A DNA stretch of 64,000 nucleotides from a virus: the IMG/VR virus record IMGVR_UViG_3300031965_000007, positions 1 to 64,000 of that record; one strand, written 5' to 3'. Shown piece after piece: positions 1-10,591 of this stretch. How positions within the stretch are numbered: position 1 is the stretch's first letter; each line of letters starts with the position of its first letter. Made by a program: the position numbers and the translations under genes. The notes under the pieces were generated by a model. The model saw only the letters and a list, made by a program, of their open reading frames with translations. It searched no databases and had not been told where the DNA came from.

Positions 1-131
1 TGGTGCCAGTCTAGGTAGGCTTTGCAGTAGGCCGCAGACGATGACTCGAAGCACATGTCGCGGCGGTTGTAGCCGTCAGTGAAGCCGTCGAAGTAGGCTT
101 TGCGGAACACGCCGATGTCGATCAAGGTCAT
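1..131 (-). CDS. hypothetical protein, runs off the window edge
   Basis: ATG at 131 overlaps the stop of 128..496 (ATGA coupling); frame open to the edge (MTLIDIGVFRKAYFDG...). Confidence 0.5.
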   Translation of the reverse strand, partial: MTLIDIGVFRKAYFDGFTDGYNRRDMCFESSSAAYCKAYLDWH

Positions 132-496
132 GACTTTCGCCCTTCAGGTTTGCGCTTAGAGACGATGCCTCGTTGTCTTGCAGCCGAAGCGTACGACGTT
201 GCTTCAACGCCTGATCCTGGGTAAACCTCGAAGTTAGACCAGTCGCCTGTGCGCAGCTCGTGAAGCTCGTACTTGTTAGGGTCGCGCGCGATCCAGTGCG
301 GAGCATCGGTTGCTTCGGTTGTCACCCAGATGAACGTGCTGCTGAGCGCGTTGACGAAGCGCCACATCGTGACCTCTTCGATCACAACGCATTCGACAGC
401 GACTAGGTCGCTGTCGTCGTAGCCGTTGCCTTGTGCGTCGACTTTCGCTTTCACGAAGTCGATTGCTGCGGCGAGGCTCTGCAGCTGAAAATGCAT
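128..496 (-). CDS. hypothetical protein (probably early)
   Basis: 122 aa ORF with AAGGAG RBS upstream of ATG, directly downstream of a hammerhead. Confidence 0.75.
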   Translation of the reverse strand: MHFQLQSLAAAIDFVKAKVDAQGNGYDDSDLVAVECVVIEEVTMWRFVNALSSTFIWVTTEATDAPHWIARDPNKYELHELRTGDWSNFEVYPGSGVEATSYASAARQRGIVSKRKPEGRKS

Positions 497-513
497 GTTG
501 GTTCTCCTTTTGT

Positions 514-583
514 GGTCTCGTCAGTGCGAGCATCCGCTCGCATACGCGCAAAGGCGCTGTCGCGCCGCGTGCACGTTTCGACC
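514..583 (-). ncRNA. type II hammerhead ribozyme (HHR-1)
   Basis: Minus strand: GGUC-GAA-ACGUGCA..(GGCGC GACA GCGCC)..UGCGCGU-A^-UGCGAGC GGAU GCUCGCA-CUGACGA-GACC. Intact CUGAnGA and GAAA core, stems I/II/III pair, GUA cleavage triplet (cut between 543 and 542). Confidence 0.9.
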
Positions 584-597
584 TGCGGTGTCTACGA

Positions 598-1176
598 TCA
601 CTCTGCGCTGCGAAGGTGCGCGACAGGCAGGAACAGCTTCGCCTTGCTCGGCGTCATCACTGCGCACTTGCTGCCGACCTGCTTGATGACGCGCAGCTCG
701 TCCAGCTCGTCTGCTTCGAGCAGCCCGACGTACGCCTCGCGGCGCTTCTCTGTGATCTGCACGATGTTGCCAGGATCGAACGTCTTGTTGAAGCCGCCGC
801 TTGCTGCGCGCGTTCGCTTCCAGTCGTCGTCCAGCGTCGGAACTTGCTCCGACAGCTTGCCGAGTACGTCTGCCAGCGCTTGCGTCTCGTCCTCGAAGGT
901 GTCGCCGAGGTCGCGCTGGATGCGCGCCGACGCCTTGATCAGCCGAAGCACGCGCACAGTGAGCATCGCTTTGTCGGAGCGCTTCTCGCGCTTGCCGTTT
1001 TCGCTATCGTCGTCGTCATCGTCGTCTGCGTCATCATCGATCTCCACCTCGCGCGCTTCCTCGCGGCCTTTCTTGCTGCGGGCTGCGCGATCTTCCGTTG
1101 CAGTCGGAAGCGCAGGCGAGCGAGCTGGCTTGGCTTTGGGAGCAGTGGTGCGCGCGGTGTTGGTCGTCTTTGCCAT
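598..1176 (-). CDS. hypothetical protein with basic N-terminus and acidic tract
   Basis: 192 aa ORF, AAGGAG RBS, lies between two hammerheads. Confidence 0.8.
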   Translation of the reverse strand: MAKTTNTARTTAPKAKPARSPALPTATEDRAARSKKGREEAREVEIDDDADDDDDDDSENGKREKRSDKAMLTVRVLRLIKASARIQRDLGDTFEDETQALADVLGKLSEQVPTLDDDWKRTRAASGGFNKTFDPGNIVQITEKRREAYVGLLEADELDELRVIKQVGSKCAVMTPSKAKLFLPVAHLRSAE

Positions 1177-1196
1177 TGTGGTATCTCCTTTTTGTG

Positions 1197-1249
1197 GAAC
1201 TCGTCAGTGCGCGCATTGCACGCGCAGACGCCGTGAAGGCGTTTCGTTC
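1197..1249 (-). ncRNA. type II hammerhead ribozyme (HHR-2)
   Basis: Minus strand: GAAC-GAA-ACGCC UUCAC GGCGU-C^-UGCGCG UGCAAUG CGCGCA-CUGACGA-GUUC. Intact core, GUC triplet (cut between 1227 and 1226); stem II can extend by AUCUCC/GGAGAU over the RBS. Confidence 0.9.
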
Positions 1250-1462
1250 TTGGAGATCCGTTATCCGTATTCAGTTGTCAGTGATCGCCCGACTGAGCGG
1301 TGGAACGCTTCGCAGCGTGCCGGCGGAGTGACGCGTCTCCCGACGCTTCGTGTGCCGCCTTCTCTCAGAGACCCTGCCCCGAGAACAACAGTGTACGCGA
1401 TCGCAAAGCACTTTGCGCACTTTTCGCACGTTTTTTTGATCGCCGTGCTGCGCACGGGGGGC

Positions 1463-1645
1463 TACGTGCGCGCACGTAAGGGGCGCGTAAAACGAACGCG
1501 TACGCGCGTACGTGCGCGCGCGTAGCCCAGCAGCCCCGAGCTTTGCAGCGCGCTACGCAGGGGCGCGCAGGGGCTGTAGCGGGGGCGCTAGGGGCACCTG
1601 TGCAAAAAAGCTACGCGAAAAACGTGACAGCGCGCGGATCCGCGC
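1463..1645. repeat. palindromes and alternating purine-pyrimidine tract in the divergent intergenic region
   Basis: Perfect palindromes TACGTGCGCGCACGTA (1463-1478), CGTACGCGCGTACG (1499-1512), GCGCGGATCCGCGC (1632-1645); 29-nt RY tract 1496-1524. Confidence 0.8.
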
Positions 1646-1680
1646 AGTAGTGTAGCGTTTCTGTACTGTATGTGCGCTAC

Positions 1681-1709
1681 TTGACAAGCGTGCTTACCCG
1701 TGCTACTTG
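1681..1709 (+). promoter_or_regulatory. putative sigma70-type rightward promoter
   Basis: TTGACA, 17-nt spacer ending in TGC, then an imperfect -10 (TACTTG), upstream of the first rightward gene. Confidence 0.45.
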
Positions 1710-1749
1710 CGCTTACCCTTGTCTAATCCGCGCTTACACGCGGAAAACA

Positions 1750-1775
1750 GGGGCAGATCTGAGGGGCAGATCTGA
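1750..1775 (+). repeat. 13-bp tandem direct repeat GGGGCAGATCTGA x2
   Basis: Exact copies at 1750-1762 and 1763-1775, immediately before the RBS of 1792. Confidence 0.85.
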
Positions 1776-1791
1776 AAGAGGAGGGGCAACC

Positions 1792-2643
1792 ATGGCTGTG
1801 AATCCCAGACTTGTGGCCGTTTCAGAGATGACGAAATCCGCGGGGCTAATCACTTGGTGGAGACTATCGGGATCTGTTTCGCTGGAAACACTCGCCAATC
1901 GTTGGCAGGGAGATCAGAAGCTCCTTCCAAACCCAGTTTCAGACTCCGTTGCGCTCCATCGCGCGATGCGTCACTACGAAGCGCGGGACGTGTTTCTCGA
2001 CAAGATGCCGCGCATGACCGGCTACGCGGTCGTCCACGTGCGGCACAGCAAGCCTGGGCCTCTTGGTGTGCCTCAGGATCCTGTCTACGAGACGCGCTTG
2101 AAGGTGTGGATCGACAAGCAAGAGCAGCTACAGTGTACCGACCTGTCGGAGCTGAAGCCGCTTTACGCTCGGTACCAGGAGTGCGCGCAGCGACTCGAGG
2201 CGGTTGAGCTATCCACATGGCTGATCAAGATGGCAGACCATTACAAGTCTGTGCGGCTACGAGACGGCGGCGGCATCTACTTCGTGCCCGAGACCCACGT
2301 TGATGCGTGGCGGCACGTGGCGCAGCTGATCGAACACGCGTCTCAGAGCACGATCTATGAGGTGCCTGCTGTTCGCAGCGAGAAGGCTGTAGAAGCGATT
2401 CTTGCGGCCGTTGTTTCGGAAGCGACGTCGCAAGTGGAGTCGATCTCTAAAATGCTCGGCGACTCAGATGAGTCTCCTCTCGGCCGTCGTGCGTTGATCT
2501 CACGACAGAAGGCGTGCTCCGACATCCTGAGCAAGGTGGCTCACTACGAAAGTCTGCTAGGCACCCGCCTTACGGACCTGCGCGGTATGATCAAGGCACT
2601 CGAGGGGCGGCTAGTTGAAGCGTTACTGGTACAGGACGCATGA
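1792..2643 (+). CDS. conserved phage protein (DUF6744-like)
   Basis: GxITWW N-terminus and LRDGGGIYFVP motif; GAGG RBS before ATG 1792. Confidence 0.55.
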   Translation: MAVNPRLVAVSEMTKSAGLITWWRLSGSVSLETLANRWQGDQKLLPNPVSDSVALHRAMRHYEARDVFLDKMPRMTGYAVVHVRHSKPGPLGVPQDPVYETRLKVWIDKQEQLQCTDLSELKPLYARYQECAQRLEAVELSTWLIKMADHYKSVRLRDGGGIYFVPETHVDAWRHVAQLIEHASQSTIYEVPAVRSEKAVEAILAAVVSEATSQVESISKMLGDSDESPLGRRALISRQKACSDILSKVAHYESLLGTRLTDLRGMIKALEGRLVEALLVQDA

Positions 2644-3233
2644 AGTCGTCTCGCCTTACCCTGATTAGCTTGAACGCCAAGACAGTCGCTAGGCGGTATC
2701 GGCGGCGTGTGTGGTGGGTAAGCGTAGAAGACCTCGAGCAAGAAGCTCTCGCAGCGCAACTGGCAGCGGAGCGCACATTCGATCTAAGCAAGGGGGAGTT
2801 TGGCGGCTACGCGTGGCGCGCAGCGGTGCTGGCGTGCCATAGGTACGTCTTGTCGCAATCGGCGCCTGTGAGCGGTCGTCACGACCCTTCGGTCCTGAAA
2901 GGCTTGTACCGCGAGGAGTTTGCGAGCGAGTCTAACGACGCGGATCAGCGAAAGCGTTACGCCGTGGTACCAGGGCAAGGTAACGAGGACCTATCGCTCG
3001 AGGAGGCTATCGATCGTGCCAGGCTGGCTGTGCGCGTTCGTAGGCGGTTGAGGCAGGTGCTCGGGAAGCAAGGCGAGAAGTTCGCGCTCGGCATGCTGAC
3101 GCGCGAGTTCACGCCGCGCGAAGTAGCCCGTGATCATTCGGTAGAGGTGCAGCGCGTTTACAGTGCTGTGCGATCGATCCGTGATAAGGTCTCAGCCGAC
3201 CAAGTCCTATACGACCTGTGGAGAGAACTGTGA
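2640..3233 (+). CDS. sigma70/ECF-like RNA polymerase sigma factor
   Basis: Region-2-like EDLEQEA...FDLSKGEFGGYAWR and C-terminal HTH (TPREVARDHSVEVQRV). Confidence 0.7.
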   Translation: MKSSRLTLISLNAKTVARRYRRRVWWVSVEDLEQEALAAQLAAERTFDLSKGEFGGYAWRAAVLACHRYVLSQSAPVSGRHDPSVLKGLYREEFASESNDADQRKRYAVVPGQGNEDLSLEEAIDRARLAVRVRRRLRQVLGKQGEKFALGMLTREFTPREVARDHSVEVQRVYSAVRSIRDKVSADQVLYDLWREL

Positions 3234-3961
3234 TGGCATCGAAGAAGCAAAAGGCTGCAGTGAAGAGAGCCCCTAGCGATCCAAAGCCTGCTGCACCAGA
3301 CGGCGAGATGATCACTGTCAGTATGGACGACATCGTCCCGACGTTCACGAAGGACACCAATCCGAACAGGATGAGCGATCAGGAGTTCGGGTCGCTTGTT
3401 CTCTTCATGAAGGAAGAAGGCGCGATCCAAACTGTCCTCGTCACACGCAGCAAGAAGAAAGGCAAGTATGACCTGATCGACGGGCACCACCGGTTCTGGG
3501 CTGCGCAGCAGATTGGTCGCAAGTCCTTGCCTGCGATCGTCAGCGAGGCGTCGATCAACAAAGCGAAAGCGATCGGTATCGGCTTGAATCGTATTCGCGG
3601 AGAGCTGGACTTGTCGGTGTCTGGCGATGTGATGATCAGCATCATGGAAGCCACGAAGTGGACGTCTGACCAGCTCTCCCTACTCACAGGCTTCTCGTCG
3701 GATGAGATCGAAGCCCTGACTGAGAGAGCCATCCACGACTCGGACGAAGTGCTCGAGGAAGTCTCGTTGAACCCGGTTGACGACGACGATCCTGCAGAAA
3801 CGAACACCAAGCCATATGTCCTAGAGATCACGTTCGCAGACAAAGCGACGTACCAGCTCTGCAGAAAGAAGCTTAGGAAGGCGGCAGGACCTGGCCGAGA
3901 CCTGGCAAAGGGTCTTCTGACTGTTCTGGGAGAGGATGCCGATGGGCAAGAAATCAGTTGA
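3233..3961 (+). CDS. ParB/Srx-like nuclease domain protein
   Basis: NPNRM...YDLIDGHHRFWAA...LNRIRG. Confidence 0.85.
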   Translation: MASKKQKAAVKRAPSDPKPAAPDGEMITVSMDDIVPTFTKDTNPNRMSDQEFGSLVLFMKEEGAIQTVLVTRSKKKGKYDLIDGHHRFWAAQQIGRKSLPAIVSEASINKAKAIGIGLNRIRGELDLSVSGDVMISIMEATKWTSDQLSLLTGFSSDEIEALTERAIHDSDEVLEEVSLNPVDDDDPAETNTKPYVLEITFADKATYQLCRKKLRKAAGPGRDLAKGLLTVLGEDADGQEIS

Positions 3962-4232
3962 CACCGATCGCGGCACAGATCAAGTTGCGGTGATGAAAGC
4001 CAACGGCTACCTACCTGCCGCTGAGGTAGCCAAGCGGCTAGGAGTGTCGCGGCAGACACTGGCCAGGTGGGCTGAGGATGGGGCGATCGATGCCGAACTG
4101 GTTGCTCACCGTCGATACATCAACGTGAGGTCCTTGGTCGATCACATCGGGGCTAAGCAAGCCCGGCTGTTCGGTTTTCTGAAGAAGAAGGCAGAGGGAG
4201 AAGCACATGTCGAAGACAGTCAAGATCAGTAA
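3942..4232 (+). CDS. HTH DNA-binding protein (MerR/Xis-like)
   Basis: AEVAKRLGVSRQTLARWAEDG. Confidence 0.8.
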   Translation: MGKKSVDTDRGTDQVAVMKANGYLPAAEVAKRLGVSRQTLARWAEDGAIDAELVAHRRYINVRSLVDHIGAKQARLFGFLKKKAEGEAHVEDSQDQ

Positions 4233-4599
4233 GGACTCGAAAGAAGCACTCGCCGAGATCGCGGCCCTCAAAGGCGTCTCGTACGATGAAGCAGCAGACT
4301 TCTTGATCGGTGTGGCCGCGTCGCGTCGCCGCGCGCTTGCCAAGTACCAGGAGTCGAAGGCTGGCACAGCACCAGCCAAGCCCAAGAAGAAAGCTGCCAA
4401 GGCCGAGGCAGTTCCCAAGACCAAGAAGAAGGCCAAGAAAGCAAAGACGGAGAAGACGGCCAAGGCCGACGCGTCCTCGAAGAAGTCGAAGAAGGTCACA
4501 ACGACCGAGAAGAAGTCGAAGAAGCCGCCGACCGAGAAGAAGCCGAAGAAGCAAGCAGCGGCTGCGGAAGGTGGCGACGAGGAAATCGTACTGGGCTGA
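4207..4599 (+). CDS. lysine/alanine-rich histone H1-like protein
   Basis: Long K/A/P-rich low-complexity tail; GGAG RBS. Confidence 0.6.
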   Translation: MSKTVKISKDSKEALAEIAALKGVSYDEAADFLIGVAASRRRALAKYQESKAGTAPAKPKKKAAKAEAVPKTKKKAKKAKTEKTAKADASSKKSKKVTTTEKKSKKPPTEKKPKKQAAAAEGGDEEIVLG

Positions 4600-4606
4600 G
4601 GAACTT

Positions 4607-6052
4607 GTGCTGATCGCTGTCGAAAACCTGCGCGCGAAACTTCTTGAGGCGAGTGAAGCAGACGAGAAGTGGCTCGACAAGATCTTGTCGTTCAAGACGA
4701 AGAGCTACCTCGCGAACAGGTATGGCGACGGGCGTGTCAGGCTACTCGATTCTCGATCGAAGTCGTTTCCTGCAGGGCTCGTTGGCGCGGTGCGCAAGCG
4801 GGCCAAGAAGGACGGCAAGCGCGTCGAGTTGGTAGATCGCAGGGTTGCACCTACGCCTTCAGATCCAACGGCGCTGGTAGACTGGCTACGTGATCACCAG
4901 CTTGGCGCGCTTGCCGCGGCCAAGAAGTTCAATCGCGGCGTGTTTCACCACGTCACAGGATCAGGCAAGACCGAGATCATGGTCGGTCTCACCGAGTTGT
5001 ATCCCACACGGTGGCTCATCCTCGTACACGCAAAGGACTTGCTGCATCAAACGGCTGAGCGCTTTCGCAAGCGCACTGGCGAGCGCGTTGGCATTGTCGG
5101 CGACGGCCAGATGCAACTCGGCAAGCGCATCACAGTCGCGATGTTCCAGTCGGTGCATTCCGGGCTCACCGGCCAGCACAAGGCAGCGATGCGGGCCTTC
5201 CTGGATGCGCAGAAAGGCGTCTTGGTCGACGAATGCCACGTCGTGCCGGCTGCAACGTATTGGCAGGTCATGATGGCGCTGCCGAACGCCTACTTCAGGT
5301 ACGGGTTCTCAGGGACGCCGTTCGCACGCGGCGATCAGAAGAGCCTCTACGTAGTTGCTACGCTCGGACCCGCCATTCACCGGGTGTCGGCAGAAGAGCT
5401 GGTAAGCAAAGGGCTTTTGGCGAAGCCGAAGATTCGCCTCGTGCCAGTGAAGCACGACGTTGACCCAAGCTCAAAGACATGGGACCAGGTCTACAAGTCG
5501 CACATCGTTCGCAGTCGTCGTCGGAATAAGGCGATCATTTCTGCAGCTCAGATCGCCAAGAAGCCGTGCCTCCTGTTCGTAAAGGCGCTCGAGCACGGGC
5601 GATACCTGGAGAAGGAGATCAGGGCTCAAGGGATCGACGTCGAGTTCATCTGGGGCAAGCATGTGACACCAGAACGTCGTGCGGCGCTGCGTCGCTTGGT
5701 GCACGGAGACATTGACGTTCTGATTTGTAACGTTATCTTTCAGCAAGGGATCGACATCCCAGAGCTTCAGTCAGTCATCATCGGGTCTGGCGGCAAATCA
5801 GAGATCATGGTCTTGCAGGACACTGGTCGAGGCATGCGACGTCACGACGCGTCAGGCGCAGTGATGAAAGACGAGTTCGAAGTCTTCGACATACAAGATC
5901 GTGGTTGTGGGTGTGCGGGCAGGCACAACTCGTGCAGATGGCTCGAGAAGCATACAAAAGATCGCTTGCGCGCCTATGCCACTGAGCAGTATCCTGTGTT
6001 CGTTACGAATCTGGGCTTGGGAGGAGCGAGAAAGAGGAAGGTGCCGTCATGA
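4607..6052 (+). CDS. SF2 DExH helicase (UvsW-like)
   Basis: TGSGKT, DECH, SGT, QDTGRGMR motifs; start GTG 4607 inferred. Confidence 0.9.
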   Translation: MLIAVENLRAKLLEASEADEKWLDKILSFKTKSYLANRYGDGRVRLLDSRSKSFPAGLVGAVRKRAKKDGKRVELVDRRVAPTPSDPTALVDWLRDHQLGALAAAKKFNRGVFHHVTGSGKTEIMVGLTELYPTRWLILVHAKDLLHQTAERFRKRTGERVGIVGDGQMQLGKRITVAMFQSVHSGLTGQHKAAMRAFLDAQKGVLVDECHVVPAATYWQVMMALPNAYFRYGFSGTPFARGDQKSLYVVATLGPAIHRVSAEELVSKGLLAKPKIRLVPVKHDVDPSSKTWDQVYKSHIVRSRRRNKAIISAAQIAKKPCLLFVKALEHGRYLEKEIRAQGIDVEFIWGKHVTPERRAALRRLVHGDIDVLICNVIFQQGIDIPELQSVIIGSGGKSEIMVLQDTGRGMRRHDASGAVMKDEFEVFDIQDRGCGCAGRHNSCRWLEKHTKDRLRAYATEQYPVFVTNLGLGGARKRKVPS

Positions 6053-7114: not shown

Positions 7115-8401
7115 GTGGCCGGAAAGGAGGTCTCGTATGGACTTGACCCTTCGTTTGAGAGATCAGTGGCGAAGCTTTGCGCTTCGTCACCAAAGTTTTT
7201 TGGCTCTGTTGGGCACGAGATCGACCCAGAGTCGATAGTCGACGACGCAGCGCGCTTGGTGATCAAGACTGCGCGAGTCATCTACAAGGCAAATGGGCGC
7301 GGCCCAGCTCACGAGACTGTCTTGCTACAGCGCCTTCGCAGACTGAACAGCGAGGGATCGGTAACCAAGAAGCAGATCAACAGCGTACTAGACCTGTTGA
7401 TTGACGCAAACGACCTGTCTGTGATCGACGTGAAGGACGAGCTGGTTCCTGTGATCAGGCGTCGACTCGAATCAGAGGTTGTGAAGCAGGTTGTCGACTC
7501 GTACAGCGCGCGGAAAGGTTTGAGCAAGGTTGCAGAGAAGATCGCACGTGTTGAGCGTGTAGGGCTGGTCGATTCATCAGTAGGCCTTCGACTCGGCAAA
7601 GAGAGTTTTGTGGAAATCGACCGTGTGCGGCGCGTGCACAAGATGCCGCTCGGCATACCTGAGCTGGACGCGGTACTTCGTGGAGGTCCACCTCGCGGCA
7701 CCATGACACTCTTCATCGCTGGCCAGGGTGGCGGCAAGTCCATGATGAAGAGTCATACGATCTCTCACAACCTGCGCTTTGGCATGTTCTGGTGCTACGC
7801 GTCGCTCGAGCTACCTGTAGTGGAGGTCATGGCACGTACGAAGGCTAACCTAACAGGCGTGCCCACGAACGTGATCGCTTCTGGCGACTTCAAAGCAGCC
7901 CGACAGGAGCTAACTCGGTTACACCCGACGCTGGGCACGTTGCTCGTTCAGCACTTTTCGCCGAAGCACACCACGTTCGCTGACATCGCGGCTTGGGTAG
8001 CTGACTGCGAGTCTGCCGAGGGCTACCCAGTCGACGGGCTTGCGATCGACTACATCGACAAGCTCGGTAGCCGCAACTCGAAAGACAACGAGTACATCGT
8101 GCAGGGTGCGCAAGCAGAGGAGTTTCGTATCTGGTGCGAAGACGGTGGCAAGTGGGGGCTCAGCGGATCTCAGGCAACCATGAAGAACAAGGATCCGCGG
8201 CGTAAGATCGGACTTGGTGATGTTCGCGACAGCTCGCGAAAGGTCGACGTCGCCGACTTAGTGATCACGCTCAACAAGAATGCCGAGGGTGACATGATCG
8301 AATACTTCGTGGGCAAGAACAGGTACGGCCCTGCGGACGTATCTGTAGGGCCCCTGCCACACGATTGGGATCACGGTAGAATGGTGATCATCGACGACTA
8401 G
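7115..8401 (+). CDS. DnaB-like replicative helicase
   Basis: Walker A GQGGGKS, SLE motif, Walker B AIDYID, C-terminal KNRYG. Confidence 0.9.
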   Translation: MAGKEVSYGLDPSFERSVAKLCASSPKFFGSVGHEIDPESIVDDAARLVIKTARVIYKANGRGPAHETVLLQRLRRLNSEGSVTKKQINSVLDLLIDANDLSVIDVKDELVPVIRRRLESEVVKQVVDSYSARKGLSKVAEKIARVERVGLVDSSVGLRLGKESFVEIDRVRRVHKMPLGIPELDAVLRGGPPRGTMTLFIAGQGGGKSMMKSHTISHNLRFGMFWCYASLELPVVEVMARTKANLTGVPTNVIASGDFKAARQELTRLHPTLGTLLVQHFSPKHTTFADIAAWVADCESAEGYPVDGLAIDYIDKLGSRNSKDNEYIVQGAQAEEFRIWCEDGGKWGLSGSQATMKNKDPRRKIGLGDVRDSSRKVDVADLVITLNKNAEGDMIEYFVGKNRYGPADVSVGPLPHDWDHGRMVIIDD

Positions 8402-10516: not shown

Positions 10517-10591
10517 GCGCAGGTAGCTCAAGAGGTAGAGCAGTCGCGCTTTCGCGAGGGTATGCGGGTTCGAAACCCGCCCTGCGCTCCA
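10517..10591 (+). tRNA. tRNA-like RNA with aberrant anticodon arm (identity unassignable)
   Basis: Acceptor GCGCAGG/CCTGCGC + T + CCA; D arm GCTC-AAGAGGTA-GAGC; T arm GCGGG-TTCGAAA-CCCGC; anticodon arm TCGCG-CTTT-CGCGA has only a 4-nt loop. Confidence 0.75.

Follow-up and report, generated by a model that had tools for sequence, protein, structure and literature searches.

Predicted hammerhead ribozymes at gene boundaries of an accessory-gene operon in an uncultured phage

Does a phage operon carry RNA elements that cut its own transcript between genes, and what would such elements do there? The question is raised by a leftward operon of small genes at the left edge of IMG/VR virus record IMGVR_UViG_3300031965_000007, a contig of 91,792 bp (G+C 58.7%) from an uncultured phage, of which the first 64 kb were analyzed as one stretch of 64,000 nucleotides (nt), here called the window. 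An original prediction, made from the letters of the window, held that complete type II hammerhead ribozymes lie on the minus strand in the leaders of two open reading frames (ORFs), here gene A and gene B, just upstream of their ribosome-binding sites. Judged by motif, placement, and covariation, these two elements, HH1 (ahead of gene A) and HH2 (between genes A and B), are genuine type II hammerhead ribozymes whose cleavage is predicted from sequence, and the best explanation for them is that they probably self-cleave at cistron boundaries of an accessory-gene operon.

Hammerhead ribozymes are recognized by a core of C3 U4 G5 A6 N7 G8 A9, G12 A13 A14, A15.1, U16.1, and H17, with standard pairs at 1.1-2.1, 10.1-11.1, and 15.1-16.1 (PMC3088659). 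Both HH1 and HH2 carry CUGACGA and GAAA, then U16.1, then C17 or A17, and in both the core-adjacent pairs are U-A, G-C, and A-U, the three stems are free of mismatches, loops close stems I and III, and stem II is open, which is the type II topology. Read 5′ to 3′, HH1 consists of stem II GAAC, GAA, stem III ACGCC-UUCAC-GGCGU, C17, stem I UGCGCG-UGCAAUG-CGCGCA, CUGACGA, and stem II GUUC, with cleavage predicted between 1227 (C17, in a GUC site) and 1226, where the 3′ product would start. In HH2, stem II is GGUC/GACC, stem I is UGCGAGC/GCUCGCA followed by CUGACGA, and stem III is a 7-bp helix, ACGUGCA/UGCGCGU, bearing an inner GGCGC-GACA-GCGCC hairpin; cleavage is predicted between 543 (A17, in a GUA site) and 542, the first position of the expected 3′ product. 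The minimum-free-energy fold of each element is the hammerhead three-way junction (z-score -2.55 for HH2), and each leads into CACAAAA(A)GGAGA and then an ATG (at 1176 and 496). Base by base, all the sequence details of the original prediction were found where it had placed them, and its type II topology, full core, compensatory stem differences, and order of ribozyme, ribosome-binding site, and gene were confirmed from the sequence.

Two such sites are far more than this genome would be expected to hold by chance. A strict type II descriptor, run on both strands of the whole 91,792-bp genome, matched exactly two sites, HH1 and HH2, and 200 dinucleotide shuffles used as a control gave a mean of 0.025 matches per genome, with none of the 200 containing two. 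When the descriptor was relaxed to cover all three hammerhead topologies, the genome contained three sites, all on one strand and in one operon, with stem sums of 16-18. The shuffles then gave a mean of 0.23 matches per genome, and a stem sum of at least 16 was reached by 2 of the 35 shuffle matches.

Conservation in related phages carries the second part of the argument. Searches of viral contigs with single proteins (gene A, gene B, the DUF6744 protein, and the DNA polymerase) found no close relatives, and a search with a DNA pattern for the joint between ribozyme and ribosome-binding site found nothing. Megablast of positions 1-6000 against GenBank phages gave no match, tblastn of the closest DUF6744 relative against phages gave none, and the DNA polymerase matched GenBank phages at only 25-29% identity; the host phage is an uncultured lineage without a close isolate. 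Gene A adjoins a DUF6744 gene, an arrangement kept in related phages, and with an alignment of DUF6744 homologs as the query, 30 viral loci were recovered, along with 80 metagenome loci and 3 contigs from metagenome-assembled genomes. The nearest relatives, each with a gene A homolog, are L075 (JACCDR010911330.1, the closest, with identities of 52% for DUF6744 and 45% for gene A), L004 (41% and 34%, the latter with an E-value of 1e-18), and L077 (42% and 40%), and gene A homologs occur in more distant loci too. In L004 (6416..6365) and L077 (721..670), a type II hammerhead lies directly past the gene A stop codon, which is the position of HH2. In L075, four tandem type II hammerheads lie upstream of gene A on the minus strand (5383-5453, 4831-4883, 4464-4524, and 4107-4160), with small unrelated genes between them, and the copy at 4160..4107 directly precedes the gene A ribosome-binding site, which is the position of HH1. 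The first of the four (5453..5383), located in the leader, reads CCGAUGA for CUGAUGA, a U4-to-C change in the core, and a plain structured spacer follows gene A in this relative.

A covariance model (R1) built from HH1 alone and searched in 665 kb scored HH2 at 36.2 bits (E ∼6e-9), the L004 copy at 41, the four L075 sites at 37-42, and the L077 copy at 32, and found nothing else with an intact core there; weaker matches, at 21 bits or less, had no core and were rejected. Also rejected was a 23-bit match to the Rfam Hammerhead_II model in the distant relative L038, which lies within a coding frame and has GGAAC in place of GAAA. Across the eight clade copies, 100% of the cells in the 15 modelled pairs are standard pairs and 9 of the 15 pairs have changed on both sides, counts that come from alignments fitted to the model, which favours pairing; partners slid by 1-3 columns pair in 15-57% of cells (15-59% for the clade and the wider class described below), and none of 500 shuffles paired as highly. 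MAFFT alignments of the hammerheads were structurally wrong, and model-based alignments were used. The 11 core nucleotides are intact in seven of the eight copies, and the helices show compensatory change. The original prediction had named the loss of core nucleotides and covariation in related phages as a finding that would count against it; what the relatives carry is hammerheads at the same joints, with stems that covary.

Table 1. Positions of the ribozymes, genes, and associated signals; numbers without a prefix are positions in the window.
Feature	Position	Strand	Description
HH1	1249..1197	-	Type II hammerhead within gene A's 5′ leader; descriptor stems I/II/III, 8/4/5 bp
HH2	583..514	-	Type II hammerhead starting 14 nt past the gene A stop; stems I/II/III of 7/4/7 bp (descriptor)
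HH3	genome 91203..91151 (L003 14204..14152), outside the window	-	Type I hammerhead; relaxed descriptor
Gene A	598..1176	-	ORF, 192 amino acids (aa); acidic low-complexity middle; coding-type GC by codon position
Gene B	128..496	-	ORF, 122 aa
Gene C, start	1..131	-	overlaps the stop of gene B, with its ATG at 131; the ORF runs off the window edge
Gene C, full	L003 14790..14449		113 aa, read through the terminal repeat at the far end of the contig
Gene D			80 aa; between gene C and HH3
Gene E			156 aa; after HH3
Shine-Dalgarno GGAGA of gene A	1184..1188	-	follows the A/C-rich spacer CACAAAAA; 8 nt ahead of the ATG at 1176
Shine-Dalgarno GGAGA of gene B	503..507	-	7 nt before the ATG at 496; preceded by ACAAAA
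5′ leader and putative promoter/operator region	1250..1430	-	Sequence
Wider-class examples	L056 1239-3308; L049 12160-12213; L073 914-968 and 2258-2313

The third site found by the relaxed descriptor, HH3, is reached through the end of the contig. Positions 1-134 of the window are repeated directly, with one mismatch, as the contig tail (91659-91792), which makes the contig either a complete circle or terminally redundant; the leftward operon resumes at 91.7 kb. Despite this 134-bp repeat, the record carries the class linear, with no end repeats, and the left edge of the window is no real genome end. Read across this junction, the operon runs in the order leader (∼1430..1250), HH1, gene A, HH2, gene B, gene C, gene D, HH3, and gene E, beyond which lie a short ORF and more small genes with overlapping stop and start codons. 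From the leader at ∼1430 leftwards across the circular junction it spans ∼3.7 kb and ends at a terminator-like hairpin with a U-run, spotted by eye at ∼12650-12600 of L003; neither a sigma-70-type promoter nor an intrinsic terminator was found inside the unit. HH3 begins two bases past the stop codon of gene D; 28 nt, GGAGA among them, lie between its end and the start of gene E. Its core, CUGACGA and GAAA, is the same as that of HH1 and HH2, with A17 as the cleavage-site nucleotide, and its stems I/II/III are of 4/6/6 bp (CCCG/CGGG, GUCGCU/AGCGAC, and ACGCGC/GCGCGU), with stem I open. It is the top match in the genome to the Rfam model RF00163 Hammerhead_1, at 14.8 bits (E 0.08) and below the cut-off of 34 bits, and GGGC in its loop II could pair with GCCC in the 3′ tail. 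No ortholog supports HH3; it is quite probably a real ribozyme.

All three elements lie in non-coding gaps on the coding strand, with 28-50 nt from cleavage site to AUG. The suggestion of the original prediction that more cassettes may lie beyond the left edge holds in the sense that a third hammerhead stands three genes further on, but that element is type I rather than type II. Its description of the hammerheads as punctuating the operon has to be narrowed: HH1 stands in a leader, and at most other operon junctions stop and start codons overlap and a ribozyme is absent, such that only some units are separated. The leader position of HH1 follows from the rejection of the sole ORF upstream of it, a 64-codon frame (1261..1455) that has no homolog and whose base composition by codon position is of the non-coding type; HH1 is thus placed in the 5′ untranslated leader, which it would trim rather than separate two genes.

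Several observations weigh against this account. The whole-genome search with Rfam hammerhead models that the original prediction had proposed did match HH1, which aligns to all 66 positions of the Hammerhead_II model (RF02276), but at 21.5 bits it falls below the gathering cut-off of 37, and HH2 was unmatched by that model up to E=10. The L004 hammerhead was not reported by it either, and elsewhere in the genome the Rfam families gave no other ribozyme match at E up to 1. A pseudoknot between loop I and the 3′ tail is found in most, not all, type II hammerheads and serves there to speed cleavage at physiological Mg2+. None of the eight clade copies has such a pseudoknot (4 bp or more) above chance, the best complementarity being 2-4 bp and equalled by at least 288 of 500 shuffled tails, and cleavage by these copies may accordingly be low in rate, slower, or dependent on some other tertiary contact. 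The missing pseudoknot is the reason for the low Rfam scores, and since the scores lie under the cut-off, routine annotation overlooks pseudoknot-free type II hammerheads. In the minimum-free-energy fold of HH3, the 4-bp stem I is replaced by a competing hairpin in which its 3′ strand refolds with the tail as CGGG-CAAG-CCCG, a structure that, from this folding prediction, would cap the 3′ product at its new 5′ end after cleavage. Neither L004 nor L077 has a hammerhead before gene A, and three distant relatives (L015 ∼8000-8100, L005 ∼7700-7870, and L011 ∼3790-3880) have near-perfect hairpins of ∼15-17 bp and no hammerhead after the gene A homolog. These plain hairpins, together with the lack of an upstream copy in L004 and L077, show that the ribozyme is dispensable at either site; the hairpins may be a signal for protein-dependent processing or termination at the same place.

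Elements of the same kind also occur well outside this clade. A search of viral contigs for the HH1 stem I hairpin joined to the core returned 33 stretches (L042-L074) with identical 19 specified bases of stem I and core, and the descriptor recognized full type II hammerheads in 25 of them. Stem II is exactly 4 bp in almost all and is preceded by A. Tandem arrays include five copies in L056 (one of them a further model match), two in L047, and two in L073. A same-strand ORF starts 0-50 nt downstream in 24 of the 25 class members, and most members come within a few bases after a stop codon. Pairing holds in 99.4% of cells across the 25 distinct sequences, with compensatory changes at 10 of 15 pairs; because the search pattern had set stem I, independent support comes only from stems II and III. 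Array members score 30-60 bits with Rfam Hammerhead_II, and the one at 60 bits exceeds the cut-off and thereby ties the class to the curated family. In several members position 7 is G and the core reads CUGAGGAG, 0-10 nt before the AUG, and to judge by its sequence this catalytic core could double as a Shine-Dalgarno sequence. As a class, these type II hammerheads are populous, have no pseudoknot, and stand at gene junctions of unrelated viral contigs.

If the ribozymes do self-cleave at the cistron boundaries of this operon, each would fold once its ∼53-70 nt have been transcribed and would then cut its own backbone, splitting the transcript so that the leader is discarded and separate mRNAs result for gene A, for genes B-C-D, and for gene E onward. 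Established hammerhead chemistry, which leaves 5′-hydroxyl and 2′,3′-cyclic phosphate ends, is the basis for the products expected here. At the head of each 3′ product would be a 5′-hydroxyl and the stem I hairpin, with an unstructured A/C-rich spacer, GGAGA, and the start codon behind them, and the 5′ products would end in the stem III hairpin with a 2′,3′-cyclic phosphate; HH2, with the longest stem III, would cap the gene A message. Because stem II is only 4 bp and is the sole helix joining the products, quick separation is expected. Neighbouring cistrons would be uncoupled in stability and translation, and each gene would receive a fixed 5′ end whatever lies upstream, which would suit accessory genes that vary between related phages. 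The sequences show the motif, where it stands, and that it is conserved with covariation; cleavage in vivo, the fate of the fragments, and this benefit are what we infer.

A different account, compatible with self-cleavage at cistron boundaries and in our view unlikely as the explanation of the locus, takes the hammerheads as module boundaries that mark, and perhaps promote, the exchange of accessory cassettes via short homologies, with cleavage only making each new cassette work in any context. Gene content does change exactly at the joints: the order is gene A, hammerhead, and a gene E-like gene in L004, with a product that matches gene E in the latter's C-terminal part (E 2e-9), and gene A, HH2, genes B, C, and D, HH3, and gene E in the phage studied here. 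The window has no counterpart of the small genes that lie upstream of gene A in L075, where hammerheads separate some of them, and a homolog of gene C is present in L075 elsewhere than among these genes. The 33 viral stretches identical in stem I and core would also suit such exchange, but the identity of stem I was imposed by the search pattern. HH2 and HH3, moreover, differ in topology and share no flank; simple recombination between the two cannot explain the B-C-D difference, and phage accessory genes vary at many junctions that are free of ribozymes. The comparison covers four genomes only and offers a lead, namely that accessory genes could function wherever they are placed, thanks to their ribozyme joints. 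The fuller proposal, in which fusions of hammerhead and ribosome-binding site are the standard joints of an exchangeable accessory-gene system, each gene or block travelling with its own ribozyme and the joints being sites of gain and loss, is doubtful. If it were true, the ribozymes would belong to a gene-shuffling architecture beyond RNA-processing signals, and the pseudoknot-free form with its fixed 4-bp stem II would be a variant adapted to it through fast product release.

Translation gated by cleavage, in which the 5′ flank of a ribozyme prolongs stem II and masks the Shine-Dalgarno sequence, cutting releases the 5′ fragment and frees the site, and translation depends on cleavage, is improbable as an explanation of these elements. 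A precedent exists in RNA viruses of fungi and plants, in which a hammerhead in the 5′ untranslated region stands directly upstream of the coding region and its self-cleavage is needed for translation initiation (PMC13725137); those are type I ribozymes in RNA genomes with eukaryotic, cap-independent translation, and the present context is that of a DNA phage and bacterial Shine-Dalgarno sequences. The flank of HH1, GAUCUCC (∼1257..1251), is predicted to pair with GGAGAU in the uncleaved leader, and the predicted probability that the Shine-Dalgarno sequence is unpaired rises from 0.01 before cleavage to 0.33 in the 3′ product. Masking is weaker in L004, where UGAUC pairs with GAUCA across the Shine-Dalgarno region and the predicted value moves from 0.32 to 0.42. 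For HH2 and HH3, however, the Shine-Dalgarno sequence is predicted to be already ∼60% unpaired and becomes no freer after cleavage, and no anti-Shine-Dalgarno sequence is kept across the eight clade copies; all accessibility values are thermodynamic predictions only. As a general mechanism, unmasking was rejected, with HH1 alone fitting; for that site the folding predictions leave it as a local possibility.

It is very improbable that the motifs are inactive relics or products of chance that no longer cleave usefully and act as stabilizing hairpins or not at all. The lack of a pseudoknot, the Rfam scores under the cut-off, the U4-to-C core change in one L075 copy, and the plain hairpins that replace the element in relatives all agree with decay. 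The core, however, is intact in seven of the eight clade copies, and every change in their stems is compensated, a pattern that hairpin function alone would not suffice to preserve, and the chance expectation is ∼0.025 per genome. RtcB uses 5′-hydroxyl and 2′,3′-cyclic phosphate ends. An RNA circle or a splicing reaction, in which the 684-nt gene A RNA released by the two same-sense ribozymes flanking it would have its ends joined by a host RtcB-type ligase, or the flanking fragments would be joined, suits that end chemistry and was raised for hammerheads by Perreault et al. (PMC3088659), but it is extremely unlikely, as the phage genome encodes no RtcB, the same authors sought spliced or circular products and found none, in the relatives gene A is flanked by hammerheads on one side only, and the released ends have no complementarity to bring them together.

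The genes joined by these elements say little of their purpose. None of the small genes of the operon could be assigned with confidence to a family: a Pfam search with gene A gave none, gene B had no Pfam or PHROG match, and the sole match to gene B among 5.8 billion clustered proteins was gene B itself. The genes that diverge rightward code for a DUF6744 protein, a Sigma-70 region 2 domain protein (2640-3233), a ParB-like protein, helicases, and a family A DNA polymerase. The polymerase has an N-terminal uracil-DNA-glycosylase-like domain, and a tRNA gene (47 bits) lies just 5′ of its gene on the plus strand (10517-10588). Cellular contigs with DUF6744 homologs come only from metagenome-assembled genomes of Deltaproteobacteria, Myxococcales, and unclassified Proteobacteria.

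The region upstream of HH1 has features of its own. As a structured RNA, the 174-nt leader was rejected, folding no better than shuffles (z-score -0.47), and no sigma-70-type promoter was found in it. A repeated motif, GTGCGAAAAGTGCGCAAAGTGC, occupies positions 1407-1429 on the minus strand of the leader and promoter region; its 17-nt core, AAAGTGCGCAAAGTGCT, has an identical copy at the matching place in L075 (∼5709-5725), and a similar sequence, GCGCAAAGTGCGC, precedes gene A in L077. The motif may be a phage-specific promoter or operator, and the phage encodes the Sigma-70 region 2 domain protein mentioned above. Between the leftward operon and the DUF6744 gene, positions 1459-1528 hold a 20-nt inverted repeat whose arms, 30 nt apart, are 95% complementary; it gives spurious microRNA-like Rfam matches and may serve as operator, origin, or bidirectional terminator. 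Close to it are GC-rich direct repeats, with CGCAGGGGC occurring twice at 1556-1574.

Processing of this kind has counterparts in systems that share its function. In T7 early mRNA, the host protein RNase III cuts structured intercistronic sites into separately stable and separately translated units, leaving a 5′-phosphate and a 3′-hydroxyl, and in the synthetic insulator RiboJ a hammerhead placed before a ribosome-binding site gives a fixed 5′ end regardless of the upstream sequence; with both, the likeness is of function only and involves no shared ancestry. The original prediction treated hammerheads in phages as isolated occurrences and overrated the novelty of the locus, since clusters flanking prophage genes were published in 2011 (PMC3088659). 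That work described natural type II hammerheads, with all three topologies covered, and reported multiple same-sense hammerheads flanking single genes or short blocks in prophages, for which the proposed role was the processing of long transcripts into gene-length mRNAs; one triple arrangement cleaves in vivo when expressed in E. coli (PMC3088659). The prophage clusters of Perreault et al. (2011, PLoS Comput Biol) share with the present operon close same-sense hammerheads flanking genes of unknown function that differ between genomes, and differ from it in a stem II often as short as 2 bp, where the present copies have a fixed 4 bp. The present copies differ further in having no pseudoknot between loop I and the 3′ tail, in one copy standing in a 5′ leader, and in belonging to an uncultured lineage. 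The Rfam Hammerhead_II model has the same core and the same order of elements as HH1 and HH2, but its 3′ tail forms the pseudoknot, whereas the tail here is an A/C-rich spacer leading to a ribosome-binding site.

In Desulfovibrio vulgaris, three type II hammerheads cleave in vivo and in vitro, with both fragments captured by cyPhyRNA-seq, and they too have hypothetical or phage-like genes nearby, with ∼300 nt between two of the ribozymes, which share a strand (PMC8782182). Those ribozymes belong to chromosomal prophage-like regions of a cultured bacterium and have experimental proof, while the present ones are known from sequence alone. Hammerheads between phage genes have been known since 2011, and the present locus is a good new example rather than a new kind of system. 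Its own features are that the pseudoknot is missing, stem II is fixed at 4 bp, one copy stands in a 5′ leader, a single operon holds two topologies, and the relatives vary in whether hammerheads flank a conserved gene.

To our knowledge, the role of hammerheads in bacteria and phages is still without experimental proof, though thousands are known. This locus is a compact test case, with three ribozymes of two topologies in one 3.7-kb operon, each directly before a ribosome-binding site, and the relatives with a ribozyme on one side of gene A, on the other, or on neither provide a natural comparison of mRNA stability and translation. The known picture of hammerheads in phages is left unchanged; to it are added well-supported examples and a practical experimental handle.

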